NCBI GenBank assembly: GCA_007375725.1
Contig: VMEV01000005.1
Coordinates: 1-57,725, forward strand
From: Parcubacteria group bacterium Greene0416_36
GTDB taxonomy: Bacteria > Patescibacteriota > Patescibacteriia > VMEV01
Direction: 5' to 3'
DNA: 57,725 bases
Shown piece by piece: positions 1,571 through 36,214 of this stretch (positions within the stretch are counted from its first letter, which is position 1; every line of letters starts with the position of its first letter). Both the position numbers and the translations under genes were made by a program. Below the pieces are notes generated by a model that was not told the origin of the DNA, did not search any database, and was given only the letters and a program-made list of their open reading frames with translations.

Positions 1571-1841
1571 ATTTTTGAGCCCATTTTTCAAAATCTACAG
1601 GGTTGCCTTTCCCGAGGCGTGCCTCTCTGATAGTTTCTACTGTTTCAGGATCATTGAGTTCCCATAATTCTTCGCGGATTTGGGTGAGCAGGTCAGATTC
1701 TAAAAACATTTCTGTCATTTTTTTTGAGAAAATCATGCCTTCGATTTTATTGTTGGATAATAAAATTTGCATTGGTTTTTGGCCCATTGTTTTTTTTAGT
1801 TTTTTTTGAAGCTGGGTCGATGTGACAAAATTGAGAGTCAT
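1560..1841 (-). CDS. putative antitoxin of the RelE/ParE module
   Basis: A small acidic ORF lies directly upstream of the toxin and overlaps it. An operator-like palindrome lies in its promoter. Confidence 0.5.
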   Translation of the reverse strand: MTLNFVTSTQLQKKLKKTMGQKPMQILLSNNKIEGMIFSKKMTEMFLESDLLTQIREELWELNDPETVETIREARLGKGNPVDFEKWAQKYEL

Positions 1842-1864
1842 ATTTTTGTAGGATTATTACAGGA

Positions 1865-1893
1865 ATACTATCCGATTTTTATCGGATAGTCAA
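1865..1893 (-). promoter_or_regulatory. sigma70-like promoter with embedded operator palindrome of the toxin-antitoxin operon
   Basis: On the minus strand TTGACT (1888-1893), a 17-nt spacer and TAGTAT (1865-1870) are present. The perfect palindrome ACTATCCGAT-TTTT-ATCGGATAGT (1867-1890) fills the spacer. Confidence 0.5.
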
Positions 1894-1900
1894 ATAATCC

Positions 1901-1938
1901 AAAATAAAACCCTCCATAAATTGGGAGGGTTTTATTTG
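1901..1938 (-). terminator. rho-independent terminator after tRNA-Trp plus trailer
   Basis: Stem AAACCCTCC / GGAGGGTTT is followed by a T-run on the minus strand. Confidence 0.65.
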
Positions 1939-1940
1939 TT

Positions 1941-2029
1941 GCGGGCTTTGCCACGCCGTAGCCTTGACGAAAGGAGGTGGGCGAAGCCCGCCTACGTCCG
2001 CTAAAAGGCGGACTTCGGCGAGGCGAAGG
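1941..2029 (-). repeat. conserved structured tRNA 3' trailer element (copy 1)
   Basis: About 80 percent identical by eye to 3731..3815. It lies immediately 3' of tRNA-Trp. Confidence 0.8.
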
Positions 2030-2100
2030 CGGGCGCGGTAGGAATTGAACCCACAGTCGCGGTTTTGGAGACCGCTGGTTTACCGTTAACCGACGCGCCC
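2030..2100 (-). tRNA. trnW: tRNA-Trp (CCA anticodon)
   Basis: Manual cloverleaf: acceptor GGGCGCG/CGCGCCC, anticodon stem GCGGT/ACCGC, loop CTCCAAA, T-arm GTGGG-TTCAATT-CCTAC. No encoded CCA. Confidence 0.85.
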
Positions 2101-2293
2101 AAACAAAAATGACCGTTTTTATTGTAATTGAGATCAGTCTAAAAATCAAACCTTTAAATGTGTTGTTTTTGCCAAACAAAAAACATCGGTTGAACCTGAT
2201 GTTTTTTGTTTGGCTGTTCATTCTTCTGCCGTCGTCTTAAAACAGGCTATGGCGTGATAAATAATTCTTCATTCTTAATTTTTCATTCTTCAT

Positions 2294-3337
2294 TTATTTC
2301 AGCACATCCTTATACTCCACCTCATAAATCGAAATGAAAGTCAGGAACACTGCGAGGATGAGGGGGCCGAAGAGGAATCCCAATGGGCCGAAGTAGGCGA
2401 TGCCGCCGAGGATGCTCATGAAGATCAGAAGCGGGTGGATCTTGGTTTTGCCTTCGATGATGAAGGGGCGGATGATATTGTCGACGAGCGAGATGCAGAA
2501 CATGCCATAGAGGAGGATGAAAATACCGTGCCAGAATTTTCCCATGGCCAGGAGGATAATGCCCGTGGGGAGCCAGACCAAGGTCGCTCCGAGCATGGGG
2601 ATGAGGCCCGCGAAGGCGGTGAGGAAGGCGAGGAAAAAGGCCGGCACTCCCGCGATCCAGAATCCAATGAAGCTCACGATTCCCTGCGCCGCAGCGACCG
2701 CGAGAGTGGAGAGAAGGGTGGAGAGGCTCATTTGGCGGAACTTGTCGAAAAGCAGGTGATCATAGCGGTCTGGTAAAGGCGAGAGGTATTTGAGTTTTTC
2801 GAGGATCTTCTTGCCGTCTTTGAAGAGATAGTAGAGGGTGATGAGGAAGAAGATCACACTGAAAGCTACGGTCGCTCCGGCGCTGAGGAGCTCTCGGGTC
2901 GCGCTCACGATATGGGTATTGACGGTGGCGGCCGCGGTGATCAGTAATTCTCGCATTTTGGCGGGATTGAGGTATTGGGCTATCGGATTGTCGGCAGATA
3001 AAAATTTCTCGGCCCATGCGCTGGTTTGCCAGCTTGTGGGGAAGGAATATCGGAGCTGTTGGTAAGCGTCGATGGACTTATCCGTGAGCATGTAGGCGAA
3101 CTGAAAAGAGGGGAGAATCACGACAAGCAGAAGGAGTCCGCACATAGCCAGAGACGCCCATGTTTTTCGTCCACCAAGCCTTTCCAAAATCATGTCATAG
3201 AGAGGATAGGTGATGGCGGCGATGGCCGAGGCCAGAAAAAGTATGCCGACGAAGGGCCGGAATAATTGAAATATAAGATAGGCGATTCCCAAAAGACACG
3301 CGATTAGGAAATAGCCGGAGAGATTGTTGATTTTCAT
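2294..3337 (-). CDS. AI-2E family transporter (PerM-like membrane protein)
   Basis: A 347-aa multi-TM protein whose layout and C-terminal conserved region resemble UPF0118/AI-2E. Confidence 0.65.
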   Translation of the reverse strand: MKINNLSGYFLIACLLGIAYLIFQLFRPFVGILFLASAIAAITYPLYDMILERLGGRKTWASLAMCGLLLLVVILPSFQFAYMLTDKSIDAYQQLRYSFPTSWQTSAWAEKFLSADNPIAQYLNPAKMRELLITAAATVNTHIVSATRELLSAGATVAFSVIFFLITLYYLFKDGKKILEKLKYLSPLPDRYDHLLFDKFRQMSLSTLLSTLAVAAAQGIVSFIGFWIAGVPAFFLAFLTAFAGLIPMLGATLVWLPTGIILLAMGKFWHGIFILLYGMFCISLVDNIIRPFIIEGKTKIHPLLIFMSILGGIAYFGPLGFLFGPLILAVFLTFISIYEVEYKDVLK

Positions 3338-3406
3338 ATAATTTATGAGTATATTTTATGGTGCGACTATACCATATATATGTAGTTTTTGCACGGATTT
3401 ATGATC

Positions 3407-3446
3407 AAAAAGGCAGAGATGTAGCATGCTACATCTCTGCCTTTTT
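3407..3446 (-). terminator. rho-independent terminator downstream of rpmG (bidirectional shape)
   Basis: A 14-bp perfect stem GGCAGAGATGTAGC / GCTACATCTCTGCC is flanked by A- and T-runs. Confidence 0.8.
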
Positions 3447-3465
3447 GATTATTGCTGAGAAGACG

Positions 3466-3621
3466 TTACTTGATTTCTTTGTGGGCTTGGTGGCCAGCGC
3501 AAAATTTGCAGAACTTGGACATTTCAAGTTTATTCTTGAGTTTGCGACGATTTTTTCGAGTATAGTGAGTCACCTGTTTGCATTCAGTACACTCCAGTTT
3601 TGTAAGGTTATCTTGAGACAT
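3466..3621 (-). CDS. rpmG: 50S ribosomal protein L33
   Basis: The 51-aa translation is [51 protein letters not shown]. It has the CxxC...CxxC pattern and the HKE-K end typical of L33. It is absent from the ORF track because it is shorter than 60 aa. Confidence 0.85.
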
Positions 3622-3688
3622 AAGAATCAATTACGAATTACAAATGACGAATTACGAATATTTAAAGATTCGATTATTCGCGATTACT
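3622..3688. repeat. heptamer-arm hairpin (GAATTAC-type arms), degenerate
   Basis: Left arm AATTACGAATTACAAATGACGAATTACGAATA, right arm ATTCGATTATTCGCGATTAC. It lies in the rpmG leader. Confidence 0.6.
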
Positions 3689-3730
3689 AGAAATTTATAG
3701 CAAAAAAAAGATATTTAATCAAGTATTGTT

Positions 3731-3815
3731 GCGGACTGTGTCACGCCGTAGCTACGACGAAGATAGGAGGGCGAAGCCCGCCTACGCGCTAAGGCGCGCT
3801 TCGGCGTGGCGAAGG
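3731..3815 (-). repeat. conserved structured tRNA 3' trailer element (copy 2)
   Basis: Aligns with 1941..2029. The internal hairpin shows compensatory changes. Confidence 0.8.
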
Positions 3816-3889
3816 CGGACCGAACGGGGCTCGAACCCGCAACCCCCGCCGTGACAGGGCGGTGCTCTAACCAGTTGAGCTACCGGTCC
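3816..3889 (-). tRNA. trnD: tRNA-Asp (GTC)
   Basis: Manual cloverleaf: acceptor GGACCGG, anticodon stem CCGCC/GGCGG, loop CTGTCAC, T-loop TTCGAGC. No encoded CCA. Confidence 0.85.
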
Positions 3890-3993: not shown

Positions 3994-4065
3994 GCCAACA
4001 TAGCTCAGCGGTAGAGCAGTAGTTTTGTAAACTATTGGTCGTGGGTTCAAATCCTACTGTTGGCT
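3994..4065 (+). tRNA. trnT: tRNA-Thr (TGT)
   Basis: Manual cloverleaf: acceptor GCCAACA/TGTTGGC, anticodon loop TTTGTAA, T-arm GTGGG-TTCAAAT-CCTAC. Confidence 0.85.
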
Positions 4066-4147
4066 CCCCGCTTCGCTGCCATCGCTTACGCTCATAGGCG
4101 AGCTTCGCGGGGCAGGCCTCACATCTCGTAGAAAATTGTTTTTTACA

Positions 4148-4156: not shown

Positions 4157-4408
4157 ATACAACATTCAGCAGCAAAATCAATGCATTGTGTTTTGTAAAA
4201 GTCATCTGATATAATGCTGGGCAAAGAACTGGCTTGGGAGGGGGTTCTTTTTTATCCTGCGAAGCTCGCCTTAGAGCGAAGCAGGATGAAAGCAAGGGGA
4301 GTGCCTTTATTACTTAGAGGGCTCCTTTTATTTTTGGCTGAAATGACGTACTCTGGGGACAACTTTCAAGAGTTTTGATAATCTATCAGATTAGCTGGTG
4401 GTGGGATG

Positions 4409-7374: not shown

Positions 7375-7956
7375 ATGAAATACACCCTACCCCCGCTTCC
7401 TTATTCCTACGACGCGCTCGAGCCGCATATCGATGCGCGCACCATGGAAATTCACTATACCAAGCATCATCAGACGTATGTGGATAAGCTCAATGCGGTC
7501 CTTGAAAAACATCCGGCACTCGCTGAAGAGAAACTCGAAGATTTGATGAAGAAATGGAATGAACTCACGATTCCAGAGGCCGATAAAATGGCTATCCGCA
7601 ATCATGGCGGAGGCCACTTGAATCATTCATTTTTTTGGAATCTGATGGACCCGAAAAAGGAGATTGATTTAAAATTATCTAAAGAAATCCAGGCTTCGTT
7701 CAGCTCGGTCGATGAGTTTAAAAAACTCTTCAGCGATAAGGCCGCCGCGTTATTCGGTTCCGGTTGGTGTCATTTGGTGCGCGATGCATCTGGCAAATTG
7801 ATGATTTATTCCTTGCCCAATCAAGATTCCCCCCTCATGTCCGGCCATACTCCAGTGATCAGTCTGGATGTCTGGGAACATGCCTATTATCTCAAATATC
7901 AAAACAAGCGTGCGGACTATATTGAGGCTTGGTGGAAGGTGGTGAAGATTATTTAA
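7375..7956 (+). CDS. Fe/Mn-family superoxide dismutase
   Basis: N-terminal YTLPPLPYSYDALEPHID, HHQTYV, and DVWEHAYYLKYQN near the C-terminus. Confidence 0.9.
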   Translation: MKYTLPPLPYSYDALEPHIDARTMEIHYTKHHQTYVDKLNAVLEKHPALAEEKLEDLMKKWNELTIPEADKMAIRNHGGGHLNHSFFWNLMDPKKEIDLKLSKEIQASFSSVDEFKKLFSDKAAALFGSGWCHLVRDASGKLMIYSLPNQDSPLMSGHTPVISLDVWEHAYYLKYQNKRADYIEAWWKVVKII

Positions 7957-8046
7957 TAAATCCCTCTCCAACCCTCCCTTTGACAAGGGAGGGGGTTTGC
8001 AGCCCCTTCCCCCTTGTCAAAGGGGGACCGAGGGGGATTTGTTGTT
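7955..8046. repeat. nested palindromic element (NPE) copy a, F orientation
   Basis: AATAAATCCCTCTCC...CCCTCCCTTTGACAAGGGAGGG...CCCCCTTGTCAAAGGGGG...GGGATTTGTTG. It overlaps the SOD stop codon. Confidence 0.9.
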
Positions 8047-8071
8047 TTGATTTCGAAAATACTTACAAAGT

Positions 8072-10505: not shown

Positions 10506-12361
10506 TCGCCTCTATTTTTTTTATTTTATTGCTCGTGCCATCGGAATGGGGGCATTTTATTTTGGGGGCGAGCGCGGCTTTGGTTTATTTATTTCTATTC
10601 TCGAAAGGGAAGATTCAAATGATCCGGAGTGATTGGATTTTATGGGTACTCTGGGGATATTTTTTGTCCGGAGTTTTTTTTCTTGTCCCATCTTTCGAAC
10701 GGGGAATAGCGGCCCTAGTGGATTTTACGTCCTGCCTGTTTTTGTTTTTTTCGGTTCGGAGCATGGATTTGTCTCTTGAAAAGTGGGCAAAGCCTCTGTT
10801 CGTCGTGTCGGGGATTAGTGCGCTCTGGGGACTCGTGGGACTTGGGCTCAGCGATCACTGGGGCTACCTCCGGACCTTTTCTTTCTGGGGCTCCCATGCC
10901 CACTGGGCGTCTTTTTTGATTTTTATTATTCCGATCGCGATGTTTTGGGTGATGAGGGGAGGGCGTCGGTGGGGGATTTTATTTCTGGCGATTTTATTCG
11001 CCAATTATTATTTCACCTTTTCCAGAAGTTCTTTCTTGGCTTTGGGTTTATGTATGGGGGTTTTGCTACTGATGAGAAAGGGCGATAAGCAACAAATCCC
11101 CCTTAATCCCCCCTTGACAGGGGGGAGATTGCTCCCTCCCCTGTCAAGGGGAGGGTTGGGGAGGGGTTGGTTGTTGGCTGTTTTTCTAATCCTCTCCCTC
11201 AGCCTTTACAAAATACACGATGCCCAAAAATCAGGTGTGCGCTTGTCTTTTTTATCACTCCAGCCCATTGTTGTCTCCATAGATAAATCAATTCCTGAAC
11301 TTGCTTCTGGGATCGACTTTTTTTTCGAACCAATACCTCCTCGAAATGCTGTGTCTTTTCGTCTTTCATACTGGAAACACGCGAGCGAAATTTTTCGGGA
11401 TCATTGGTTTTGGGGCATCGGAATCGGGGCCTTCGCAGATCAGTATCGCCTGTATTATCAGGATTTGCGCGATTTTTCGGGCGACCCGCATTCGTGGCCG
11501 CTGTCCTTGGCTTTGGCGGGCGGGGTGGCGGGGGGCGTGATTTTATTCATCTGGATTATTTCGGTGGTTCGGACAAGATTTTGGGAGGGGTGGGGCGACT
11601 CTCAGAAAATATTGGCTCTGTCTTTGGGTTTATTACTCGTTTCCAATCTCTGGGACCGAGGATTGATTTTTCTGCCGCATTTATTGATGATTTTCGTGTC
11701 TTTGGGGATGCTTTTGGGGGATGCGGGTCGTCCTGGTAGGGACACGTTCGGGCGTAGGGGCACGTTGCAACGTGCCCCTACGGGGCCGGTGGTAGGGATA
11801 TCCATAATTTTATTATTCGTTTCGTCTAGCTTTTTCCTCTCCTCTCTCTTTTCCAATCCCCGTCTTGCTTATTATTTCTATCGCCCTCGATCGGAATATG
11901 CTTATGCGGAGGCCCAGAAGCATGTGGATGGGGAAGTCCGTGCGGATTATTTTGTCTGGATGTCCCGCGCTTTATTTTGGGATGCCCCCAACTATATTTA
12001 TCGGACTCAATTAGCCGTCAATTTGTGGAATACCGGCCGTCACTCCGAGGCTCTCTCCGAAATCGAGCGCACGATTGCTTCCTCCCCCCGTGGCATTCCC
12101 AATTTGTACTTGTATTATTTTCAATTATTGAAGAATCGCGGGGAGTATGAAAAAATAGTGCGAGTCGGAGAAACTGTGATTCTGGATTATCCCAGAGATA
12201 TTCTGGTCTCCGAGGATTATTTTCTCTTCGACGGCGGCATTGAAAAACGGAAATCCGTGGCCGATATTTACGGGTGGATGGCCCGAGCGGCAGAGACTCT
12301 GGGAGACTTCGGAAAAGCGCAATTTTTCGAGGAGAGAAGCCGATTTATTTTGGGATTATGA
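10493..12361 (+). CDS. O-antigen ligase (Wzy_C)-like membrane protein with TPR-like C-terminus, carrying two in-frame repeat insertions
   Basis: Multi-TM protein with a FSRSSFLALGL-type motif. It contains NPE copy b and a GTAG palindrome in frame. Confidence 0.6.
   Translation: MPYLIASIFFILLLVPSEWGHFILGASAALVYLFLFSKGKIQMIRSDWILWVLWGYFLSGVFFLVPSFERGIAALVDFTSCLFLFFSVRSMDLSLEKWAKPLFVVSGISALWGLVGLGLSDHWGYLRTFSFWGSHAHWASFLIFIIPIAMFWVMRGGRRWGILFLAILFANYYFTFSRSSFLALGLCMGVLLLMRKGDKQQIPLNPPLTGGRLLPPLSRGGLGRGWLLAVFLILSLSLYKIHDAQKSGVRLSFLSLQPIVVSIDKSIPELASGIDFFFEPIPPRNAVSFRLSYWKHASEIFRDHWFWGIGIGAFADQYRLYYQDLRDFSGDPHSWPLSLALAGGVAGGVILFIWIISVVRTRFWEGWGDSQKILALSLGLLLVSNLWDRGLIFLPHLLMIFVSLGMLLGDAGRPGRDTFGRRGTLQRAPTGPVVGISIILLFVSSSFFLSSLFSNPRLAYYFYRPRSEYAYAEAQKHVDGEVRADYFVWMSRALFWDAPNYIYRTQLAVNLWNTGRHSEALSEIERTIASSPRGIPNLYLYYFQLLKNRGEYEKIVRVGETVILDYPRDILVSEDYFLFDGGIEKRKSVADIYGWMARAAETLGDFGKAQFFEERSRFILGL
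11089..11176. repeat. NPE copy b, R orientation, inside a CDS
   Basis: GCAACAAATCCCCCTTAATCCCCCCTTGACAGGGGGG...CCCTCCCCTGTCAAGGGGAGGG...GTTGGTTGTTG. It is read as QQIPLNPPLTGGRLLPPLSRGGLGRGWLL. Confidence 0.85.
11736..11781. repeat. GTAG-headed palindrome (REP-like) plus partial copy, inside a CDS
   Basis: GTAGGGACACGTTCGGGC is followed by the perfect 28-nt palindrome GTAGGGGCACGTTGCAACGTGCCCCTAC (11754-11781). Confidence 0.85.
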
Positions 12362-14039: not shown

Positions 14040-14355
14040 AAAAATACTCAAGCCCGATTTGGAATTCCAGTCTCTTTTTCGAGAGAGACTGGCTAGTTCC
14101 GGTGATTTATATCTGGAAATTCGCGCCTCTCCTTCTTCTTCCAAAACCGAACTCAGGGAGGTTTTATCTAGTGGAACCTGGAAAATCGCTCTGGTCGCTC
14201 GGCCGGAGCGTGGAAAGGCCAATGTCGAATTGGTTCTTTTTTTATCCCGATTTTTTGACGTACCGAAATCAAATGTGGTTCTGGTTCGAGGAGTGGCCTC
14301 TCGCCAGAAGTGTGTGCATGTGTGGAAAAAAATCCCTCCCCAGCCCTCCCTCTGA
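14029..14355 (+). CDS. DUF167 (YggU-like) protein
   Basis: The ARPERGKANVELVLFLSRFFDVPKSNVVLVRGVASRQK pattern matches this family. The last residues and the stop lie inside NPE copy c. Confidence 0.6.
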   Translation: MGNKKILKPDLEFQSLFRERLASSGDLYLEIRASPSSSKTELREVLSSGTWKIALVARPERGKANVELVLFLSRFFDVPKSNVVLVRGVASRQKCVHVWKKIPPQPSL

Positions 14356-14412
14356 GAGGGGAGGGGGCACTAACTTCCCCCTTGTCAAAGGGGGACCGAG
14401 GGGGATTTGTTG
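14326..14412. repeat. NPE copy c, F orientation
   Basis: The variant left hairpin is CCCTCCCTCTGAGAGGGGAGGG. It contains the DUF167 stop codon. Confidence 0.9.
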
Positions 14413-14470
14413 TTTGTTGTTGAGTTGTTTTTCTTTATGCTAAAATAATTACGAAATCAGTTTTGTTATT

Positions 14471-16729: not shown

Positions 16730-18673
16730 ATGAATAAACCAACCGATAATGACGGCGGCGGGGCGCCTGTCCCTGGAGTCAAAAAATATTCCCGATTTTT
16801 GGAGTTTTATAAAAAAGAGGGAGGCGAAAAGGACATGTCGAGCATAGAGCATTCCAATGGGAGATGGCTGTTTGTGACCATTCTCGTGTTTTTTTCCATT
16901 GCTTTGTCAGGCGTCTTGTCGCTCCTTTTGGGATATTGGTATTTCAATCGCCAATTAGGGCAGGACCGGAAATATGAGGTCAAGGTGGCGGTATCCGGAG
17001 ACCCGAAAATCATCTCGGGAGATGAGCTGGTGTACCTTGTGGATTATGCCAATCTCTCTGGCGTGGAACTCCGTGATGCCCGGATCCATATCCGCTATCC
17101 CGCGGGATTTTCTCTTCTTTCCGTATTGCCAGAGCCGACCGGAGACAGTTCTATCTGGGATCTGGGAGTGCTTTCTTCCGGAGCCACGGGCCAGATCAAG
17201 ATAATTGGGCGCATTTTGGGAGAAAAAGACAGTTCCAAAACACTTTCGTCCGTCCTTTATTTTGTTCCCCATAATTTTAATTCCGAATTTCAGGAAATAG
17301 GTTCAACTACCGGCAAGATTGTTGGCTCGGATTTGTCTTTGGCTCTTGAAATTCCCGATGAAATGTATGTGGGAGAAAAGGTCCGAGGCCTGATTGTCTA
17401 TAAAAGCCTTCGCAATGAACCTTTGGGAAATATCAAAATCGATTTTGAGAATCCTTCCTCTTTTGAGATTTTGTCTTCATCGGTTCTTCTAGATCCGGTG
17501 GAAAATGTTTTTATCATCAAAAACGCCGTGGCAGAGGGTGAAATCGCGATCGAAGGGATTTGGGGCGCGCATCCGGGAGAGGATAAACAGTCGATCAAAT
17601 TGTTGGGAGAATTGGGAGATGAGTCCAATTTTTATCGGCAATCCGAGATTGAAAAAACAATGAACGTGCTTCGAAGTGATATCGAATCCTCCTTGGTCGC
17701 GAATGGCAGTGCCGAAAAATCCGCAATCTATCCTGGGGATCTGCTGCAATATTCTTTGTCCATTGGCAATAAAAGCGATGCCTTACTCGAAAAAATAGAA
17801 GTTGTTTTTGTGGTGGAGGGGAAATCGGATTTTAATAATTCTCATCTTAGAAAAGATTTTCGTCTGTTGGACTGGGATGTGGCTAAATTTAATGCGCCTC
17901 CTCTTGTCAAATTATTGGATATCCCCAAAGATCAGTCCTTTATTTTCGAGAGAAGGCAGATGACCTGGGGAGAGGGGGAGTACAAAGAACTCGCGAAATT
18001 GTCTCCGGAGGGCGAGATCGAATTATCTTTATCTTTGCCCGTGACCTCTTCGGCGGCCATAAAAAATCTCTTGGGGGTCGATGATTTCGGCCGGATTGAG
18101 ATGGAGAGTCATTTTGAGGTGCGGGTGGGAAAAACCGGCGGGAAATCTCTTGGGCAGGTGATCCGCAGTAATTCGATTCGAAGCATCCTTCATAGCGACT
18201 TGGCTCTCGATAGTGCGATTCGTTATTTTGATGAAAATAGCGTGCCGATCGGCTCTGGCCCCTTGCCTCCGGAGGTGGGAAAAGAGACAAAATACCGCGT
18301 GTTTTGGAAACTCTCCCAGTCTTTTCATGAAAGTGGCACGGTCTCGGTCCGCGCGGTACTCCCCGACGGCGTGTCGTGGGCCGGTAATATAAGGGTGGGA
18401 GCCGGCGAAATGGAGTATGATTTCAAAAATAAAGTCATTTCCTGGAAAATCAATCAGCTTCCTTCATTCACGCGAGAGATCAGCGCGGTATTTGATATCG
18501 CTCTTGTCCCTGAAGCCAAACACTCCGGACAAATTCTCGTTCTCGTTCCTAAACCTTCAATCGAAGCCGTGGATCTCTATCTCAAGAGTCCTATTGAGCG
18601 ATATGGCAAAACATTGACAACCAATCTGGAAGGTGATTCCATTGGGCAAGGAAAAGGGATAGTGGGGGAGTAA
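16730..18673 (+). CDS. membrane-anchored hypothetical protein with repeated beta-sandwich-like segments
   Basis: One TM segment near residue 50 is followed by about 590 aa of extracytoplasmic sequence. The gene starts 7 nt after the DUF4012 gene. Confidence 0.5.
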   Translation: MNKPTDNDGGGAPVPGVKKYSRFLEFYKKEGGEKDMSSIEHSNGRWLFVTILVFFSIALSGVLSLLLGYWYFNRQLGQDRKYEVKVAVSGDPKIISGDELVYLVDYANLSGVELRDARIHIRYPAGFSLLSVLPEPTGDSSIWDLGVLSSGATGQIKIIGRILGEKDSSKTLSSVLYFVPHNFNSEFQEIGSTTGKIVGSDLSLALEIPDEMYVGEKVRGLIVYKSLRNEPLGNIKIDFENPSSFEILSSSVLLDPVENVFIIKNAVAEGEIAIEGIWGAHPGEDKQSIKLLGELGDESNFYRQSEIEKTMNVLRSDIESSLVANGSAEKSAIYPGDLLQYSLSIGNKSDALLEKIEVVFVVEGKSDFNNSHLRKDFRLLDWDVAKFNAPPLVKLLDIPKDQSFIFERRQMTWGEGEYKELAKLSPEGEIELSLSLPVTSSAAIKNLLGVDDFGRIEMESHFEVRVGKTGGKSLGQVIRSNSIRSILHSDLALDSAIRYFDENSVPIGSGPLPPEVGKETKYRVFWKLSQSFHESGTVSVRAVLPDGVSWAGNIRVGAGEMEYDFKNKVISWKINQLPSFTREISAVFDIALVPEAKHSGQILVLVPKPSIEAVDLYLKSPIERYGKTLTTNLEGDSIGQGKGIVGE

Positions 18674-18679
18674 ACAAAT

Positions 18680-19975
<1,296 letters not shown>

Positions 19976-20111
19976 GCAACAAATCCCTCCCCAACCCTCC
20001 CTTTGACAAGGGAGGGAGCAACAACACCCTCCTTCCCTCAGTCTTCGCACCTCTAAGGGGTGGGCGTAGTAGCTTCCCCCTTGTCAAAGGGGGATTGAGG
20101 GGGATTTGTTG
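19976..20111. repeat. NPE copy d, F orientation, with ~45-nt extra central insert
   Basis: Starts directly after the tgt stop codon. The centre contains CAACAACACCCTCCTTCCCTCAGTCTTCGCACCTCTAAGGGGTGGGCGTAGTAGC. Confidence 0.9.
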
Positions 20112-20120
20112 TTTCCTGTT

Positions 20121-20146
20121 TCATTCGTCATTTGTAATTCGTAATT
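20121..20146. repeat. single heptamer arm (TCATTCGTCATTTGTAATTCGTAATT)
   Basis: A right-arm type sequence lies directly after NPE copy d. No left arm is present. Confidence 0.6.
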
Positions 20147-20152
20147 TTTTAT

Positions 20153-21466
20153 ATGTACTCCACCGTCCCCGTCGTTTCCGTCACTCAATTCAACGAATAT
20201 ACCAATGAAGTATTGGCGAATCTTAAGTTTGGCGTGCGGGGGGAGATTATTGGGTATAAAGTGTCGCAGGGGAAGTGGGTGACCTTTGATTTGAAAGACG
20301 CCACAAGTAAAATCAGCTGTTTTTCGACCGTGTATAAACAAAATGTGGCGCTTGAAGATGGGATGGAGGTGATTTGTTATGGGTATCCGAAGATTTATGT
20401 GCCGTACGGGAGATTTTCATTTACGGTCGAGGCCGTGGAACCGGTGGGCGAGGGTGCGCTCAAAAAAGCATTTGAGCTGACTAAGTCCCGCTTGGAATCG
20501 GAAGGACTCTTTGATCCCAAGTACAAAAAGCCGCTTCCTCGTTTTCCGGATCGGATCGGTATTGTCTCGTCTCCCGAAGCGGCGGCGTATACGGATATTC
20601 TGCGGATTCTCAATAATCGCTGGGGAGGACTCGAGATATTTCTCCGTCCCGTGCTGGTTCAGGGGGTGAATGCTCCGGGGGAGATTGTCGAGGCGATCCA
20701 ATATTTCAATGCTCATTTTCCGGTGGACGTGATTTTGGTGGCGCGTGGGGGCGGATCGCTCGAGGATCTGCAGGCCTTCAATGACGAGCGGGTGTGCCGC
20801 GCGATATTCGCCTCGAAGATCCCGATCATCACGGGAGTGGGGCATGAACGGGACACCACCCTCGTCGATTATGTCGCCGACCGCCGAGCCTCCACCCCGT
20901 CGAATGCCGCGGAGATCGCGGTGCCGGACCGCCGTGATATACTGGATCAATTGCTTTGGTCTCGGCGGACGATGGACTCATCCATGGAAGAGAGGATTCG
21001 AACCCTTGGGACCCAATTATTGCATAGTAAAACGCATTTGGACCGATTTGTGGAGAATATTCAGGTGGGATTTTCGAATCTCCAGGCGAAATTTGTGACA
21101 GCGAGCAATCGTCTTGGGTCGATGATGCAAACCGGCCAAAGTAATATCGCCTTGGCGGAGAAAAATATCCGTGATATTCTTCTTCGCAGAATCGCGTTGT
21201 CTCGTTCTCGACTCGGAGAGCGTCAGGTATTTCTCCAGTCCACTCATCCTTATCGGCTTTTGGAAAAAGGCTATTCGATTTCGTATCAGCGAGACGCCAA
21301 GACGATTATTCGTTCGGCCAAGTCCATTAAATGGGGGGATAAGATTGTGTCGAGGTGGAGAGATGGGGAGGCGGTGTCGATTGTGGAGAAGACAACAAAT
21401 CCCTCCCCAGCCCTCCCTTTGACAAGGGAGGGTGTAGCAGCTTCCCCCTTGTCAAAGGGGGATTGA
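20153..21466 (+). CDS. xseA: exodeoxyribonuclease VII large subunit
   Basis: OB-fold N-terminus (GEIIGYKVSQGKWVTFDLKD), VARGGGSLEDL and GHERD motifs. The C-terminal tail and stop lie inside NPE copy e. Confidence 0.9.
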   Translation: MYSTVPVVSVTQFNEYTNEVLANLKFGVRGEIIGYKVSQGKWVTFDLKDATSKISCFSTVYKQNVALEDGMEVICYGYPKIYVPYGRFSFTVEAVEPVGEGALKKAFELTKSRLESEGLFDPKYKKPLPRFPDRIGIVSSPEAAAYTDILRILNNRWGGLEIFLRPVLVQGVNAPGEIVEAIQYFNAHFPVDVILVARGGGSLEDLQAFNDERVCRAIFASKIPIITGVGHERDTTLVDYVADRRASTPSNAAEIAVPDRRDILDQLLWSRRTMDSSMEERIRTLGTQLLHSKTHLDRFVENIQVGFSNLQAKFVTASNRLGSMMQTGQSNIALAEKNIRDILLRRIALSRSRLGERQVFLQSTHPYRLLEKGYSISYQRDAKTIIRSAKSIKWGDKIVSRWRDGEAVSIVEKTTNPSPALPLTREGVAASPLSKGD

Positions 21467-21480
21467 GGGGGATTTGTTGC
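21392..21480. repeat. NPE copy e, F orientation
   Basis: Full element. It supplies the last ~25 codons and the TGA stop of xseA. Confidence 0.9.
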
Positions 21481-21524
21481 TATCTTTGTTACACCATTCA
21501 TGGAAACTTAAAACTTGCTTTTCT

Positions 21525-23979: not shown

Positions 23980-24041
23980 AATGTAGGGGCCTGAAATGTA
24001 GGGGCACAGCGCGCTGTGCCCCTACATTTTGCCCTTACATT
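23980..24041. repeat. nested GTAG palindromes (REP-like doublet)
   Basis: The perfect palindrome GTAGGGGCACAGCGCGCTGTGCCCCTAC (23998-24025) lies inside outer arms AATGTAGGGGC / GCCCTTACATT, between convergent rplU and recR. Confidence 0.9.
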
Positions 24042-26403: not shown

Positions 26404-26552
26404 AATTTTTTACTCTTCCAGTATGCGCGCTCATTTTTTTTTGATCAATGTGGAGAGTGAGGGTGAATTGTGAAAGGAGTGTGAACAAGTTATTTTGGAT
26501 GAAGAATTTTGGGGTCTTGTCTTTTGATTTGTTATAATTAAATAACATCAGA

Positions 26553-26643
26553 GCAACAAATCCCACCCCAACCCTCCCTTTGACAAGGGAGGGGGTGTAG
26601 CTACCTCCCCCTTGTCAAAGGGGGATTGAGGGGGATTTGTTGC
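26553..26643. repeat. NPE copy f, F orientation
   Basis: Full element in the divergent dnaB / 26677 intergenic region. Confidence 0.9.
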
Positions 26644-26676
26644 TTGAAACACGGATGCCAACAATCATAAATTTTT

Positions 26677-27757: not shown

Positions 27758-27844
27758 AACAACAAATCCCTCCCCAACCCTCCTTTTGACAAGGGAGGGC
27801 GCTGTTTCCCCCTTGTTAAAGGGGGATTAAGGGGGATTTGTTGC
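27758..27844. repeat. NPE copy g, F orientation
   Basis: Full element starting 4 nt after the preceding stop codon. Confidence 0.9.
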
Positions 27845-27852
27845 TAAAACAT

Positions 27853-29400
27853 ATGTCTCTAATTATCCGCGAAAATATCCCCCTTGCTCCCCTGACGACT
27901 TTCCGAGTCGGCGGGCCGGCGCGTTATTTTGCGGAGGTGGGAAGCAGAGAGGATTTGAAAGAAGCTTCGGCATGGGCAATCGAAAAACAATGCCCGGTTT
28001 TTATTTTTGGGGGGGGGAGCAATGTGCTGGTCAGTGACGAGGGATTTCTTGGCTTAGTGATTCGTCCGAATTTTTTGGGGAAGGAAATTGTCAGAGAGGA
28101 CGGCGAATCCGTGCGGATTCGTTTGGGCTCCGGAGAAGTCTGGGACGAGATGGTCGCGTGGACAGTGGAGAATAATTGGTGGGGAATTGAAAACCTCTCT
28201 CATATTCCCGGACGTGTTGGGGGCCTCGCGGTCCAGAATGTGGGGGCGTATGGGCAAGAGGCTTCTCAGGTGGTCGATTCCGTCGAAGCCTGGGATATTC
28301 AGGATCAAAAAGTAAGAATATTTCAAAAAGAAGAATGCCTATTTCGTTATCGGCAGAGTATTTTTAATGTCGAAGAGAAGGGAACATATGTGATTATTTC
28401 GATTGTTTTAAAATTGAGCAAAATTGCCAGTCCTAAGCTCGATTATCCGGATCTTAAAAAATGCCTGGAGTCCAATGTGAGTCCTTCGATTGGGGATATT
28501 CGCCGCTGTATTATTTCCATTCGCGACGCCAAATTTCCGTTTCCCCGAGAGGCGCAAAACGGTAATGCTGGGTCTTTTTTCAAGAATTTGGTTCTCACCC
28601 AAGATCTATATTCGATTCTTGAATCTTCTGTCGCGAAAAATATTCCGTTAGCATTACCCAAACTTCAAGAAATCAAAAAAAAATTTCCCGACCAAACCGG
28701 AATCAAAATCCCGACCGCCTTCCTCATCGATATTTGCGGCCTCAAGGGCGCATCAGTCGGCGGAGCGAAAATCAACGAAAAACAGCCTCTCGTGATTCTC
28801 AATTATACCGGTAAAGCCATGGCGAAGGATATTTTGGCGCTGGCAGATCAGGTGATAGCCACGTTGCATGAGAAGACGGGGATGAGAGTGGAGAGGGAGG
28901 TGGAGTGGGTGGGGGCAACAAGCAACCGGGCAACCAATCCCCCTCGGTCCCCCTTTGACAAGGGGGAAGAGGATGTTGTTACCCCCTCCCTTGTCAAAGG
29001 GAGGATTGGGGTGGGATTTGTTGCTAGAGGTTTGAATCTCCCCTATAATCAAAAACTAAAAATCTTGGCAAGAGAGAACCGAAAAAATTCGACACCCTCT
29101 GAATCAAAAATGTGGAATGATGTATTGCGTCGCCGTCAATGTAAGGGGCATACGTTTTTGAGACAAAAACCCATGGGTCGCTTCATTTTAGATTTTTATT
29201 GTTCAGAATTATTGTTGGGAATTGAAATCGATGGGAATTATCATACTGATCAGGAAATAAAAGAAAATGACGAAGAAAGATCCGAGTTATTAAAAGAATT
29301 TGGGATTCAGGTAATTCGATATACGAATGAAGAGGTGTTGGAAAATATTGAAGGGGTGAGGGAGGATTTGGGCAAGAGGGTGGGGGAGAGGGAACAATAA
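27853..29400 (+). CDS. murB: UDP-N-acetylenolpyruvoylglucosamine reductase (MurB) fused in frame, through a repeat copy, to a DUF559 endonuclease-like domain
   Basis: The MurB part has LAPLTTFRVGGPARYF and FIFGGGSNVLV. The MurB part ends near 28914, NPE copy h is read through, and the DUF559-like part follows. Confidence 0.75.
   Translation: MSLIIRENIPLAPLTTFRVGGPARYFAEVGSREDLKEASAWAIEKQCPVFIFGGGSNVLVSDEGFLGLVIRPNFLGKEIVREDGESVRIRLGSGEVWDEMVAWTVENNWWGIENLSHIPGRVGGLAVQNVGAYGQEASQVVDSVEAWDIQDQKVRIFQKEECLFRYRQSIFNVEEKGTYVIISIVLKLSKIASPKLDYPDLKKCLESNVSPSIGDIRRCIISIRDAKFPFPREAQNGNAGSFFKNLVLTQDLYSILESSVAKNIPLALPKLQEIKKKFPDQTGIKIPTAFLIDICGLKGASVGGAKINEKQPLVILNYTGKAMAKDILALADQVIATLHEKTGMRVEREVEWVGATSNRATNPPRSPFDKGEEDVVTPSLVKGRIGVGFVARGLNLPYNQKLKILARENRKNSTPSESKMWNDVLRRRQCKGHTFLRQKPMGRFILDFYCSELLLGIEIDGNYHTDQEIKENDEERSELLKEFGIQVIRYTNEEVLENIEGVREDLGKRVGEREQ
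28915..29024. repeat. NPE copy h, R orientation, inside a CDS
   Basis: Read as ATSNRATNPPRSPFDKGEEDVVTPSLVKGRIGVGFVA with no stop in this frame. Confidence 0.85.
29032..29400 (+). other. DUF559 (Vsr-like endonuclease) domain segment of the murB ORF
   Basis: LPYNQKLKILARENRKNSTPSESKMWNDVLRRRQCKGHTFLRQKPMGRFILDFYC...IEIDG...IRYTNEEV matches the stand-alone DUF559 layout. A TTG at 29032 could be an independent start. Confidence 0.6.
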
Positions 29401-29490
29401 AACAACAAATCCCCCTCAATCCCCCTTTGACAAGGGGGAGGAAGCTGCGCCCTCCCTTGTCAAAGGGAGGGTTGAGGTGGGATTTGTTGT
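29401..29490. repeat. NPE copy i, R orientation
   Basis: Starts directly after the stop codon at 29398-29400. Confidence 0.9.
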
Positions 29491-29516
29491 TTTGCTGCTC
29501 TTCAGTTCTTCCCCTC

Positions 29517-30290: not shown

Positions 30291-30317
30291 AATAGGCGAA
30301 TGTTAGGTAAATAATTA

Positions 30318-30411
30318 GCAACAAACCCCTCCCCAACCCTCCCTTTGACAAGGGAGGGGGCAACAACACCCCTTCCCCCTTGTCAAAGGGGGACCGAGGG
30401 GGATTTGTTGC
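30318..30411. repeat. NPE copy j, F orientation
   Basis: Full element. It contains the stop codon and last codons of the MurD-like gene on the minus strand. Confidence 0.9.
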
Positions 30412-31774
30412 TGGTTGTCTGCTGTTTGAATTGTTCCCCCCTCTCCTCGAAATTCTTAAACCTCCCATAACTCGGTGCTGCGGGTGAGAGGAGAATAACC
30501 CCGCCTTTTGGCGTGAGTCTTTGCGCTCGTTTGACTGCATCGGTCAAGTCTGTAGATTCCTCCACTATCGGGGATGTCTTTTTTTGTCTCCCGAGTTCCG
30601 CGCGGATCGCCGCGGCAATTTTGGGGCCGCTGTCCGGCATGGTGACGACCGCGTGAATGGCATGATCCACGAGATATTGGGCGAGTTCTTCCCACTGGAG
30701 ACCGCGGTTAAATCCGCCGAGAAGAATAGTGACCGATTTATCAGGAAATGCTTCGATGGCGGCGATGGCCGACTGTGGCGTGGTGGAGATACTGTCATCC
30801 ACATACAGAATGCCATTTTTCTCGCCGAGCCGGGTCAGGCGGTGAGGCAGGGGCTGGAATGAGCCGATGGTCGAGAGTGCTTTCGTGATATCGAGACCCA
30901 GAGCTGAGACCACGGTTAGGGCGGCGGCGAGATTGGAGAGGTTGTGCGCCCCCAACAGCGGGATTTGATCGGCGCCAATGACGCGGTGCCCGCCTTCGTA
31001 AACGGCATGATTTCGGACATTGAATCCTTCGGGGTCATTGAAATAAATCGTATTGGGCAAATAAGGGAGCAGTCGGACGGTATTTTTATCGGTTTGGTTG
31101 AGAATGGCGATATTGCCGCCGAGTCGGTGGAGTAAATTGAGTTTGTCTTGGTAATACGTTTTTTCGTTCCCGTGCCAGTCCAGATGTTCGGGGAAGAGAT
31201 TCACGAGCACCGCCATTCCCGGCCTGCCGTCGAAATCCGCGGCTTGGTAACTGGACATTTCGATCACCCATATCTCGTCTTTTTGCGGCGCATTCATGGA
31301 AAATAAAGGCACTCCGATATTGCCGGCGAGCACGACTTTTTTTCCCGCGGCCGAGAGCAAGTGTGCAACCAGCGAGCTGGTGGTGCTTTTGCCCTTGGTG
31401 CCGGTCACGCAAATAGAAGCGGTCCCTGGATATTCTCCAAACCAAAGATTGGTGGGGGTGGTGAAAATCACGCCTTTGTTTTTTGCTTCGAGTATTGCTT
31501 GTTTGTATCTCGAAATGCCTGGAGTTTTGATGATGATGTCAAAAGCCGTCAAAATTTCGGTAGTCACGGTTCCGATTCTGATATGATTTCTAGGGTTTTT
31601 CGCCAATTCTTGTTCGTCTTGAGGATCAATCGGCGTGTCATTGAGCAGGCAGAAATCTTGTTCGGGTAATTGTTTCCTGATCGCTTCTAGAGTGGCTTTG
31701 ATTTCTCGTCCGATTCCCCAGAGGGCGACTTTTTTATTGGCGAGATTGGAGAGTGTCATAGAGAATTTTTTCAA
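30383..31774 (-). CDS. murD: Mur ligase, MurD2-type (UDP-MurNAc-L-Ala--glutamate ligase)
   Basis: VALWGIGREIKA N-terminus, GTKGKSTT P-loop, and NLFPEHLDWHG in place of the usual MurD DHLDRH. Confidence 0.7.
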   Translation of the reverse strand: MKKFSMTLSNLANKKVALWGIGREIKATLEAIRKQLPEQDFCLLNDTPIDPQDEQELAKNPRNHIRIGTVTTEILTAFDIIIKTPGISRYKQAILEAKNKGVIFTTPTNLWFGEYPGTASICVTGTKGKSTTSSLVAHLLSAAGKKVVLAGNIGVPLFSMNAPQKDEIWVIEMSSYQAADFDGRPGMAVLVNLFPEHLDWHGNEKTYYQDKLNLLHRLGGNIAILNQTDKNTVRLLPYLPNTIYFNDPEGFNVRNHAVYEGGHRVIGADQIPLLGAHNLSNLAAALTVVSALGLDITKALSTIGSFQPLPHRLTRLGEKNGILYVDDSISTTPQSAIAAIEAFPDKSVTILLGGFNRGLQWEELAQYLVDHAIHAVVTMPDSGPKIAAAIRAELGRQKKTSPIVEESTDLTDAVKRAQRLTPKGGVILLSPAAPSYGRFKNFEERGEQFKQQTTSNKSPSVPL

Positions 31775-34844: not shown

Positions 34845-34918
34845 ACAGCCGCAACAAATCCCTCCCCAACCCTCCCTTTGACAAGGGAGGGGGTAGCAGC
34901 CTCCCCTTATTCGTAATT
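34812..34918. repeat. heptamer-arm hairpin interrupted by NPE copy k
   Basis: Left arm AATTAAGAATGATGAATTACGAATGACGAATTA, then AACAGCC, then the truncated NPE, then the short right arm TTATTCGTAATTTT. Confidence 0.7.
34851..34908. repeat. NPE copy k, F orientation, truncated (left half only)
   Basis: The left TIR, first hairpin and GGTAGCAGCC linker are present. The second hairpin and right TIR are absent. Confidence 0.85.
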
Positions 34919-36090: not shown

Positions 36091-36153
36091 CAAGGGAGGG
36101 CGCAATAGCACCCCTTCCCCCTTGTCAAAGGGGGACCGAGGGGGATTTGTTGC
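36061..36153. repeat. NPE copy l, F orientation
   Basis: Full element. The TGA of its TTTGACAAG supplies the stop of the preceding gene. Confidence 0.9.
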
Positions 36154-36155
36154 CG

Positions 36156-36214
36156 CTACCTCCTACCTCCTACTTCCTACCTCCTACTTCCTACAACCTA
36201 CTTCCTACCTCCTA
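36156..36214 (+). repeat. tandem heptamer array CTACCTC/CTACTTC x8
   Basis: Strict 7-nt period. It ends 5 nt before the ATG at 36220. Confidence 0.9.

Follow-up and report, generated by a model that had tools for sequence, protein, structure and literature searches.

Two structured trailers behind tRNA-Trp and tRNA-Asp of a Parcubacteria group bacterium, probable solo copies of a mobile repeat family associated with small GIY-YIG nuclease genes

A 57,725-nucleotide (nt) stretch of DNA from Parcubacteria group bacterium Greene0416_36 (contig VMEV01000005.1, positions 1 to 57,725 of the forward strand; hereafter the window, at its whole length) was analyzed for two structured sequences that directly follow the genes for tRNA-Trp and tRNA-Asp. 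Both belong to a repeat family that was defined in the present analysis and named element E, for which a covariance model (R1) was built from 24 family members, the two window copies among them, so that their own R1 scores are partly circular. Copies of E recur at the 3' ends of tRNA and transfer-messenger RNA (tmRNA) genes and are often followed by the gene of a small GIY-YIG nuclease, and comparison of these loci suggests that the window trailers are probably solo members of this cassette-associated mobile family. Each copy comprises two hairpins, HP1 and HP2; X1 denotes the last ~6 nt before the insertion point, and X' and X2 the 5' and 3' strands of HP2. The features at the two loci are as follows.

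1902–1937, minus strand: intrinsic-terminator-like hairpin (CCCTCC/GGAGGG plus a T run) right after the Trp copy of E (terminator scan)
1941–2027, minus strand: Trp copy of E, 87 nt, solo, with no nuclease gene after it (alignment; nhmmer E-value 3e-30; R1 78.4 bits)
1941–1957, minus strand: HP2 of the Trp copy, with X' GGCGTGGC (1950–1957), loop AAA (1947–1949) and X2 GCCCGC (1941–1946) (model-based alignment, pair counts)
1986–2024, minus strand: HP1 of the Trp copy (fold, family pair counts, apical stem survey)
2028–2100, minus strand: tRNA-Trp, CCA anticodon (ARAGORN; Rfam tRNA, 59.5 bits)
3731–3813, minus strand: Asp copy of E, 83 nt, solo (alignment; nhmmer E-value 7e-28; R1 82.2 bits)
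3731–3747, minus strand: HP2 of the Asp copy, with X' GGCGTGAC (3740–3747), loop ACA (3737–3739) and X2 GTCCGC (3731–3736) (model-based alignment)
3776–3810, minus strand: HP1 of the Asp copy (fold, pair counts, apical survey)
3814–3889, minus strand: tRNA-Asp, GTC anticodon (ARAGORN; Rfam)

A preliminary description, made from the letters of the window, had proposed that the 3' flanks of the two tRNA genes align along their whole length, which was borne out (83% mean column identity), and its coordinates were right within 2 nt, as the elements run from 2027 to 1941 and from 3813 to 3731. A two-sequence hidden Markov model (HMM) detected only these two loci in the window, and independently picked up family members in Bacteroidota loci; R1 recovered both window copies at an E-value of ~1e-15, the next non-overlapping match reaching 13.8 bits. 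Neither tRNA gene encodes A76: tRNA-Trp ends in ...CGCGCCC-G-CC, X1 being its last 6-7 nt (GCCCGCC), and tRNA-Asp in ...GGTCC-G-CC, with GTCCGCC as X1. Both copies start GCC|TTCGCC, directly after the discriminator and CC of the tRNA. Behind the Trp copy the terminator scan confirmed the terminator already described (1902–1937, minus strand), whose 5' flank GCAACAAAT is identical to the end motif of a ~90-nt palindromic repeat abundant in the window; behind the Asp copy come ~100 nt and then rpmG (ribosomal protein L33) on the same strand.

The lower stem of HP1 is formed in the Trp copy by GCCTCGCC (2017–2024, with a bulged T) and GGCGGGC (1986–1992), and continues through a GAA/GUA 3x3 internal loop into the apical hairpin TCCGC-CTTTTA-GCGGA (1997–2012); in the Asp copy GCCACGCC (3803–3810) is paired with GGCGGGC (3776–3782) and the apex is CGCGC-CTTA-GCGCG (3785–3798). 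The apical hairpin is thus changed on both strands and still paired, just as had been noticed. The other hairpin then proposed, CTTCG..CGAAG, is indeed identical in the two window copies, but it suffers an uncompensated T-T mismatch in the GTAG variants of the family (7/24 aligned copies), and it cannot form together with the stem GCC(N)CGCC/GGCGGGC, which has better support. HP2 (1941–1957 and 3731–3747), which mirrors the 3' end of each tRNA, was absent from the preliminary description: in the Trp copy X2 repeats the tRNA-Trp end GCCCGCC and X' GGCGTGGC is its complement, and in the Asp copy X2 repeats the tRNA-Asp end GTCCGCC, to which X' GGCGTGAC is complementary. Both copies also carry CGTAG-GCGGGCTTCGCCC, a GTAG tag adjoining an imperfect GC-rich palindrome.

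Across the family, full-length E measured 64-128 nt (33 non-redundant copies), and its parts follow one another, 5' to 3', as TTC, HP1, TTCG with a variable spacer of ~5-65 nt, (G)CU(U/A)C, and HP2 (X', a 2-4-nt loop and X2). HP1 has a 7-bp lower stem GCC(N)CGCC/GGCGGGC with an optional bulged base, a 3x3 internal loop of G(A/U)A opposite GUA and a variable apical hairpin, and carries one or two GTAG tags beside GC-rich palindromes. In the 24-sequence alignment 99% of the cells of HP1 and HP2 were paired, versus 30-42% when the partners were slid, and three pairs were changed on both sides. The lower stem of HP1 was 100% paired and mostly invariant, partly because the search patterns fixed it; a CG to UA double change in this stem was found in copies reached through the nuclease protein, independently of the DNA pattern. 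The strongest structural evidence is the apical stem, for which 62 distinct sequences were found, those of at least 11 nt being almost all full-length perfect stems. GNRA was present in 5/17 four-nt apical loops versus 0 for the complementary motif (p ~1e-4), a strand bias indicating selection on the tRNA-sense single strand, either as RNA or as one DNA strand. The asymmetry of G-U and A-C pairs was also considered for the RNA-or-DNA call, and was dropped for the paucity of non-canonical pairs.

The X segments, read from 65 matches aligned to R1, obey a rule by which X2 repeats X1 and X' complements X1, and this holds for host ends of the Ser/Asp, Trp, Glu, Pro, CCAGCC and ACCGCC types:

Ser/Asp host end: X1 TCCGCC, X' GCG(N)GAC, X2 GTCCGC
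Trp host end: X1 CCCGCC, X' GCG(N)GGC, X2 GCCCGC
Glu host end: X1 GCCGCC, X' GCGAGCC, X2 GGCCG
Pro host end: X1 CCCGAC, X' TCGGGGC, X2 CCCCGAC
Host end at locus L181: X1 CCAGCC, X' GCTCGGC, X2 GCCAGC
Second tRNA-Ser host end: X1 ACCGCC, X' GCGTGTC, X2 GACCGT

All four bases were seen at the sixth-last tRNA position, X' always presenting the Watson-Crick partner and X2 always the same base, and the window copies fit the rule (GGC/GCC behind tRNA-Trp, GAC/GTC behind tRNA-Asp). The exceptions were one tmRNA copy and the tRNA-Leu copy, in which X2 matched and X' was unadapted. Pair counts, the apical survey and the X1/X'/X2 rule therefore agree on a conserved structure with compensatory changes, as the preliminary description had held. 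Since X2 repeats X1, E is bounded by a ~6-nt direct repeat of its target; target-site duplication would account for X2, not for X'. Miniature inverted-repeat transposable elements are defined by terminal inverted repeats and a target-site duplication of fixed length; in E the left arm and the X' region are inverted repeats and the ~6-nt direct repeat lies on either side, but X' is target-dependent and no transposase is linked. Two further origins of HP2 were considered and rejected: a palindromic (P-nucleotide-like) one, as the loops (GCA, ACA, AAA and others) are not palindromic, and the remnant of a deleted second tRNA, as X' also pairs with N73-C74-C75 and the fourth pair is unlike the acceptor stem of tRNA-Ser.

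A first scan with the 17-mer GTAGGCGGGCTTCGCCC against species-representative genomes returned, among the matches listed, mostly chance hits in GC-rich genomes, together with copies in metagenome-assembled genomes (MAGs) of Cytophagales, Chitinophagaceae, Flavobacteriales and Bacteroidia and in one Moraniibacteriota MAG; the copies in Bacteroidota MAGs begin exactly at the end of tRNA-Ser or tmRNA. A second scan of metagenome contigs with a more specific two-anchor pattern gave 76 loci, most of them short contigs without taxonomy. Altogether 86 pattern instances were collected (metagenome loci, genome loci and window), ~45 of them at distance 0 from a tRNA or tmRNA 3' end; the pattern scans amount to ~60 distinct copies of E from Bacteroidota and the Candidate Phyla Radiation (CPR), most of them at distance 0, and an R1 search gave 113 matches in 89 loci. 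The commonest host was tRNA-Ser, the others being tRNA-Pro, Asp, Trp, Glu, Ala and Leu and tmRNA. The junction read N73-C-C|TTCGCC in 36/41 distinct E-bearing tRNA/tmRNA ends, with AC|T in four and GCA in one. On a GC-rich contig (L181) E stands behind a full ACCA plus GCC (ACCA-GCC|E), so that insertion is independent of a missing A76. No match to E was found in a viral contig collection.

Evidence of mobility came from comparison of loci. A syntenic relative has the gene order tRNA-Asp, tRNA-Gly, tRNA-Thr, rpmG, AI-2E and tRNA-Trp, which is that of the window apart from the extra tRNA-Gly, and its tRNA-Trp and tRNA-Asp ends run straight into AT-rich sequence or a terminator, free of E. This empty-site comparison involves one relative, whose flanks are too diverged for base-by-base insertion boundaries; the nearest homologue of the AI-2E transporter is 49% identical, and homologues with a named source are mostly from Patescibacteria/CPR. 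At related loci, an identical 77-amino-acid (aa) protein was encoded in two contexts (L200 and L205), the common DNA being an 884-nt block of 99% identity whose left boundary is exactly CCGCC|TTCGC; one copy lies behind tRNA-Ser and the other at a non-tRNA site with the flank ...ACACCGCC. When L146 was compared with L174, and likewise in L151, L145 and L214, two copies of E bracketed the open reading frame (ORF) and a 5-70-nt duplicate of the tRNA/tmRNA 3' end preceded the second E; about half of the ORF-bearing loci had a decayed second E after the stop codon. Tandem arrays of E, of up to six copies, lie between tRNA and ORF, an outcome to be expected of slippage or recombination between units with direct repeats at their ends. 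Presence and absence of a nuclease at a conserved site, and its movement with its flanks, as in homing, were thus found at the related loci and not in the window. Among the three options that the preliminary description had offered, the tRNA-targeting mobile repeat was supported by the same exact junction in two phyla behind tmRNA and at least seven kinds of tRNA, by the vacant sites of the relative, by tandem arrays and by non-tRNA copies; a processing signal and a tRNA-linked small RNA are less likely, and are weighed below.

The partner gene is a small ORF (starting MYYVYIL...), seen where several hundred nt separate an intact tRNA from the element. A profile search of the six-frame ORFs of all loci gave 29 GIY-YIG matches, nearly all located 93-630 nt downstream of the start of E on the same strand, and no match in the chance-hit loci. 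The ORF encodes 77-85 aa, a bare GIY-YIG catalytic domain (Pfam PF01541, E-values 1e-13 to 1e-16) with the catalytic residues Tyr, Tyr, Arg, His and Glu conserved, and its nearest solved structures are the UPF0213 proteins 1ZG2 and 1YWL, plus Slx1. Where a single copy of E precedes, the ORF starts 3-45 nt after it, and in L123 and L209 the end of HP2 is 3-5 nt from the start codon. When all ORFs within 1.5 kb of E were clustered (~85 loci), the GIY-YIG gene was the sole real recurrent neighbor (31 ORFs in 28 loci), and the other clusters consisted of translated tRNA or E sequence; no cluster of Y1 or DDE transposases, tyrosine/serine recombinases or integrases was found.

The decisive test of the link between E and the nuclease was the search in the opposite direction, from protein to DNA. 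More than 2,300 homologues of the 77-aa protein, 77-88% identical, occur across many CPR classes, and E was directly upstream of the ORF in all the loci reached in this way, comprising independent CPR loci (n = 4/4) and cultured Chitinophagaceae (n = 2/2). A Staskawiczbacteria locus reads tRNA-Trp|E|5 nt|ORF, and its E shares the ...TTCGTCAA(A/G)GCTACGGCG(A/T)GGCAA(A)GCCCGC part with the Trp trailer of the window. Through the Bacteroidota-type protein, which shares 60-68% identity with the CPR type, tRNA-Ser|E|ORF loci were found in the cultured Niastella yeongjuensis and Flavisolibacter ginsengisoli.

Several observations weigh against the reading of the trailers as solo cassette members. No GIY-YIG gene or remnant was found in the 57.7-kb window by a profile search of six-frame ORFs of at least 30 aa or by a relaxed tblastn (a weak tblastn match at 34479–34634 lies inside a glycosyltransferase and is spurious), so that the window copies are solo and their nuclease link comes from the homology of E alone. 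Among tRNAs with enough flank, an ORF within 750 nt was present in 14/38 E-bearing versus 4/28 E-less ones (Fisher p = 0.05), which means that E and the ORF can exist apart; 2-3 of the four E-less tRNAs with an ORF have a decayed or displaced E, and solo copies are the majority (24/38). GIY-YIG genes also follow tRNAs that lack E, copies reduced to HP1 were found away from tRNAs, the 77-aa nuclease domain has no evident DNA-binding part, and one recent relocation (L205 to L200) left X' and X2 unmatched to the new flank. Moreover, the DNA patterns demanded exact core motifs of E, which are parts of HP1, inflating the apparent conservation and biasing the host spectrum.

Regarding the E-less loci, GIY-YIG ORFs of other subfamilies were observed right after tRNA-Arg (L134 and L178) and two tRNA-Met (L162, 788-1600); one has a 5-nt spacer, and another has a trailer of a different kind, complementary in its distal part to the tRNA 3' end, so the habit of settling at tRNA ends seems to be general for these small nucleases. 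Regarding the HP1-only modules, copies on the opposite strand immediately precede a Shine-Dalgarno sequence with its start codon (...GGCGAA|GGAGGTGA..ATG) in L124, L138/L168, L148, L184, L185 and L191. CCTCC, the complement of the Shine-Dalgarno sequence, resembles the CCGCC target, and this placement could reflect either a preference for CCTCC targets or a role in the 5' untranslated region.

What is established for the family is its existence, the exact tRNA/tmRNA junction, the conserved hairpins, the target-matching 3' hairpin, the link to a UPF0213-type GIY-YIG gene and movement as a block; any particular enzymatic mechanism is far less certain. Entry of the cassette at tRNA ends may proceed through recombination initiated by the nuclease, with E and the tRNA 3' end together serving as a portable region of homology or attachment, and the layout of direct repeat, ORF and direct repeat would fit Campbell-type integration, homing-type entry or repair of a nuclease-made break. 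The ORF would be transcribed from the tRNA promoter, and recombination between flanking copies would delete it and leave a solo E, as in the window. In the tRNA-E co-transcript the hairpins probably shield acceptor-stem folding and 3' processing from the trailer, HP2 sequestering an X' that could otherwise pair with the tRNA 3' end, and where a downstream mRNA exists they may cap it. Most likely, the window copies have no role beyond that of a tolerated structured 3' trailer removed during tRNA maturation.

The main rival of a solo-cassette origin, which we consider unlikely, is that E functions primarily as an RNA trailer, serving tRNAs without an encoded terminal A either in cis, as a signal for processing or maturation, or as a stable small RNA linked to the tRNA. 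X' would then pair with the tRNA 3' end, or, to RNase Z, RNase P, RNase III or the CCA-adding enzyme, HP2 would look like a closed acceptor stem; the link to the nuclease would be secondary. The exact junction at positions 75/76 in tRNA-linked copies speaks for such a trailer, as do the GNRA loops on the tRNA-sense strand and the match between X' and the individual tRNA upstream, whose acceptor 3' strand and N73-C74-C75 it complements; at one tRNA position all four bases occur and covary as Watson-Crick pairs. At the Trp locus E sits between the tRNA and the terminator and is therefore predicted to be co-transcribed. The folds of the window copies are stabler than shuffles (z -2.6 to -2.8); the reverse strand, however, folds at least equally well (z -3.4 to -4.3), so that a DNA palindrome fits as well as an RNA. 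Furthermore, the orthologous tRNA-Trp and tRNA-Asp of the syntenic relative, as well as other CC-ending tRNAs of the window, lack E, and its dispensability for the relative's tRNAs argues against a required maturation signal; E is also found at non-tRNA sites, in tandem arrays and after a CCA-encoding tRNA (L181). The Rfam scan proposed in the preliminary description gave no RNA family that fits the trailers: with Rfam 15 the window yielded only tRNA matches at the gathering threshold, an E-value scan of 1880-2110 returned terminator-driven chance matches, and six related loci gave tRNAs and one L10 leader (L209) and no family for E. A self-cleaving ribozyme (HDV-like or hatchet, cutting at its own 5' end) that would make the tRNA 3' end was dropped for want of Rfam support, its pseudoknot not being fitted by eye.

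Somewhat less probable is that E is a miniature element of the type of repetitive extragenic palindromic (REP) sequences and REPINs, mobilized in trans by a RAYT (an IS200/IS605-like Y1 transposase) or another transposase that prefers CCNCC sites, with the GIY-YIG gene sharing the same safe harbor. REP sequences, with their BIME and REPIN assemblies, are short GC-rich imperfect palindromes, GTAG-tagged and associated with RAYT transposases, and they are widespread (PMC3733652). Like them, E is extragenic, often placed after genes, sometimes arrayed and probably transcribed as hairpins; its HP1 has GTAG tags beside GC-rich palindromes, it matches its own reverse complement (HMM), its copies abut CCTCC in several contigs, and HP1-only modules are dispersed in intergenic DNA of the Moraniibacteriota MAG (5 R1 matches in 8 kb, no tRNA). 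Unlike REPs, E has an exact tRNA/tmRNA junction, no such targeting appearing in the REP literature examined (PMC3733652), and is a two-hairpin composite of 64-128 nt whose only recurrent neighbor is a GIY-YIG gene and not a RAYT, with none of the transposase or integrase clusters looked for within 1.5 kb. Its copy number in the window is low, two significant copies against at least 14 of a different palindromic family, and the presence of E at 6/6 loci reached from the GIY-YIG protein is hard to credit to a shared harbor alone.

A regulatory or antidote RNA for the nuclease, comparable to type III toxin-antitoxin systems and with solo copies as leftovers, is very improbable. In its favor are arrays of E or of the HP2 unit directly upstream of the ORF (six in L160, three to four in L155/L162, three in L051), the closeness of HP2 to the start codon in L123 and L209 (3-5 nt), and highly conserved proteins with intact catalytic residues. 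Most loci, however, have a single E, no terminator was noted between repeats and ORF in the loci examined, and solo copies predominate (24/38); known GIY-YIG enzymes are DNases, and the exact tRNA junction and the target-matching HP2 would be left unexplained.

The 3' ends of tRNA-Ser, tRNA-Pro, tRNA-Leu and tmRNA are classic integration sites, and all four occur among the hosts of E; in addition, E has a short direct repeat of its tRNA end at either border, and some loci have duplicated partial tRNA 3' ends. Attachment-site remnants of integrase-driven islands or prophages are nevertheless the least probable source, considering that the flanks share no recurrent integrase (in the window, rpmG follows the Asp copy and a terminator the Trp copy), that the unit between the repeats is 64-128 nt, that the viral contig collection had no match, and that an internal structure conserved across phyla is unexpected for such scars.

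Reading E plus its nuclease as a mobile cassette invites comparison with known systems. Integrative and cis-mobilizable elements use tRNA/tmRNA 3' ends, keeping the tRNA gene intact and having its end directly repeated on either side. E has the same address, the flanking repeat and the intact tRNA gene, but E is smaller by two orders of magnitude, has a repeat of ~6 nt and is accompanied by no tyrosine/serine recombinase cluster. IS200/IS605 elements and their miniature derivatives have hairpin ends, insert 3' of a short specific sequence that is recognized by base contacts with an internal guide beside the hairpin, and are orientation-specific. E shares the hairpin ends, a site 3' of a short sequence, a guide-like segment near a hairpin and the orientation; unlike IS200/IS605, it has no Y1 HUH transposase nearby, its target is repeated at its right end and the 6-8-nt complement pairs as a regular hairpin. 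Stand-alone UPF0213/YhbQ-type proteins (1ZG2, 1YWL) and the Slx1 domain are the closest relatives of the ORF, with the same catalytic residues, but the papers searched connected their genes neither with tRNA ends nor with a structured repeat. Phage T4 SegB is a free-standing GIY-YIG homing endonuclease whose gene lies in a tRNA gene region (PMC2330249), and the cassette resembles it in having a GIY-YIG gene between or behind tRNA genes, selfish inheritance with its flanks, and presence/absence polymorphism. Seg proteins, in contrast, are ~200 aa long with a DNA-binding domain and reside in phages, whereas the cassette encodes a bare 77-85-aa UPF0213/Slx1-type catalytic domain, belongs to cellular CPR and Bacteroidota genomes (none in viral contigs) and contains a conserved structured non-coding module with a target-matching hairpin, which is the only part held by the window.

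It is conceivable, though a long shot, that X' acts as a nucleic-acid guide, either RNA or folded single-stranded DNA, that programs the domain-only GIY-YIG nuclease to the 3' end of one tRNA gene; HP2, in which X' is paired with the target copy, would then be the closed, self-inhibited or product state. If true, this would be a guide-directed homing system on a GIY-YIG fold, and would explain how one cassette is retargeted to Ser, Asp, Trp, Glu, Pro, Ala and tmRNA ends.

Additional features were observed around the cassettes. The 884-nt block shared by L200 and L205 includes a 103-aa ORF (1781-2092, minus strand), which thus travels with E and the GIY-YIG gene. In L145 (reverse strand 930-1405), pseudo-tRNA-Pro copies, with CCCGCC-NNNN-GGCGGG hairpins in place of the D and T loops, stand beside an intact tRNA-Pro and the GIY-YIG ORF. 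Downstream of GIY-YIG cassettes (L200, 2221-2317; L189, reverse strand 4189-4285) a non-coding block of 97 nt, GACCCGAGTACCTCAATCT...GGGGCACTTAACCCGA..CCGCCAGATTGG, is conserved; it precedes unrelated genes (GMP synthase, LexA), has a CCGCC-like end, recurs as shorter copies in L131, L183 and L189 (reverse complement, 3599) and gave no Rfam match. Also in L189, two GACCCGAGTACCT motifs bracket an extra ORF of ~150 aa. The 17-mer used in the first scan is shared by an unrelated Chloroflexia repeat, GCCCGCGTAGGCGGGCTTCGCCC..GTTGCCGCGGCTTCAGCCGCCGGG, which one Chloroflexia MAG (SMAG_U9695) carries on nine contigs or more (L011, L018, L045, L046, L050, L060, L101, L104 and L121), and which was also recorded at L044 and L066; it forms tandem arrays in a deltaproteobacterial contig (88-nt period) and in a Chloroflexales contig.

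Within the window, the preliminary description had also pointed to degenerate relatives of the trailers. The 12-mer GGCGRGCTTCGC is indeed shared (5 matches versus 0.6 expected), but the sites are not significant with R1 (E-values 0.3 and 1.6).

4068–4124, plus strand: possible degenerate HP1-type relative directly after tRNA-Thr(TGT) (3994–4067) (12-mer; fold; R1 12.5 bits, E-value 0.3 at 4065–4124)
4252–4291, minus strand: short hairpin CCTGC-TTC-GCTC..GCGAGC-TTC-GCAGG with the TTCGC/GGCGAGCTTCGC vocabulary (12-mer; fold; R1 E-values 1.6-8.9, 1.6 at 4254–4287)

The former reads CCCCGC-TTC-GCTGCC...GGCGAGC-TTC-GCGGGG and begins exactly at the tRNA-Thr 3' end, which lends it contextual support; membership of the latter in the family is doubtful. 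Six of the eight tRNA genes of the window (2028, 3814, 3994, 44312, 44437 and 47136) do not encode CCA, all six having CC plus a non-A after the discriminator, and the syntenic relative (L198) has the same tRNA ends; this may reflect the way 3' ends are made or repaired in the lineage, or simply partial CCA templating.

Other repeats of the window were also recorded. The most abundant is the ~90-nt nested palindrome AACAACAAATCCCTCCCC..CCCTCCCTTTGACAAGGGAGGG..TCCCCCTTGTCAAAGGGGGA..GGGGGATTTGTTGTT, with at least 14 copies in both orientations (7952-8047, 11088-11179, 14324-14415, 19975-20114, 21391-21482, 26552-26645, 27758-27845, 28935-29026, 29401-29492, 30314-30413, 34850-34917, 36056-36155, 43606-43695, 54089-54180 and 56591-56682); it consists of an outer stem with two inner hairpins, parallel to E, and its end GCAACAAAT is the junction behind the Trp trailer. 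Intergenic runs of 7-nt units (AATTACG, AATGACG or AATTAAG), often beside gene ends or palindromic repeats, were found at 3620-3670, 18664-18704, 34795-34852, 44146-44203, 45246-45296 and 49744-49801, and their complements at 2264-2299, 18723-18772, 20116-20151, 44275-44310 and 45311-45346. A GTAG-tagged perfect palindrome, TGTAGGGGCACAGTGCGCTGTGCCCCTACA, occurs in three copies (11753-11783, 19330-19360 and 23997-24027), and another, CGTAGGGACGTTGCAATGCAACGTCCCTACG, flanked by A and T runs, lies between the convergent tRNA-Thr and tRNA-Gly (44387-44436); in sequence these palindromes resemble REP-like bidirectional terminators. A 14-nt unit (CTACCTCCTACTTC-like) is repeated in tandem, ~5 times, at 36156-36225.

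Full-text literature searches turned up no description of E or of a link between UPF0213 genes and tRNA ends, an absence that is no proof of novelty; E looks like the footprint of an apparently undescribed selfish element that targets tRNA gene ends. The cassette is classified as a variation on known kinds, namely a selfish nuclease cassette combined with a miniature repeat, the unusual part being the target-matched hairpin. For the window itself the meaning is modest, two tRNA genes with a tolerated structured 3' trailer. For the family, if the cassette reading is true, tiny UPF0213-type GIY-YIG genes, which form thousands of clusters, are 60-88% identical across CPR classes and Bacteroidota and are usually annotated as "GIY-YIG nuclease family protein" or "excinuclease ABC C subunit domain", would drive a compact mobile unit that colonizes the ends of tRNA and tmRNA genes, and a structured module matched to the host tRNA would be an unusual case of target mimicry or guidance. 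Solo copies of E would then be a recurrent source of conserved, covarying, apparently non-coding sequence adjacent to tRNAs, which RNA-discovery pipelines could misread as riboregulators. The tRNA-Ser|E|GIY-YIG loci of the cultured Niastella yeongjuensis and Flavisolibacter ginsengisoli make the system open to experiment.

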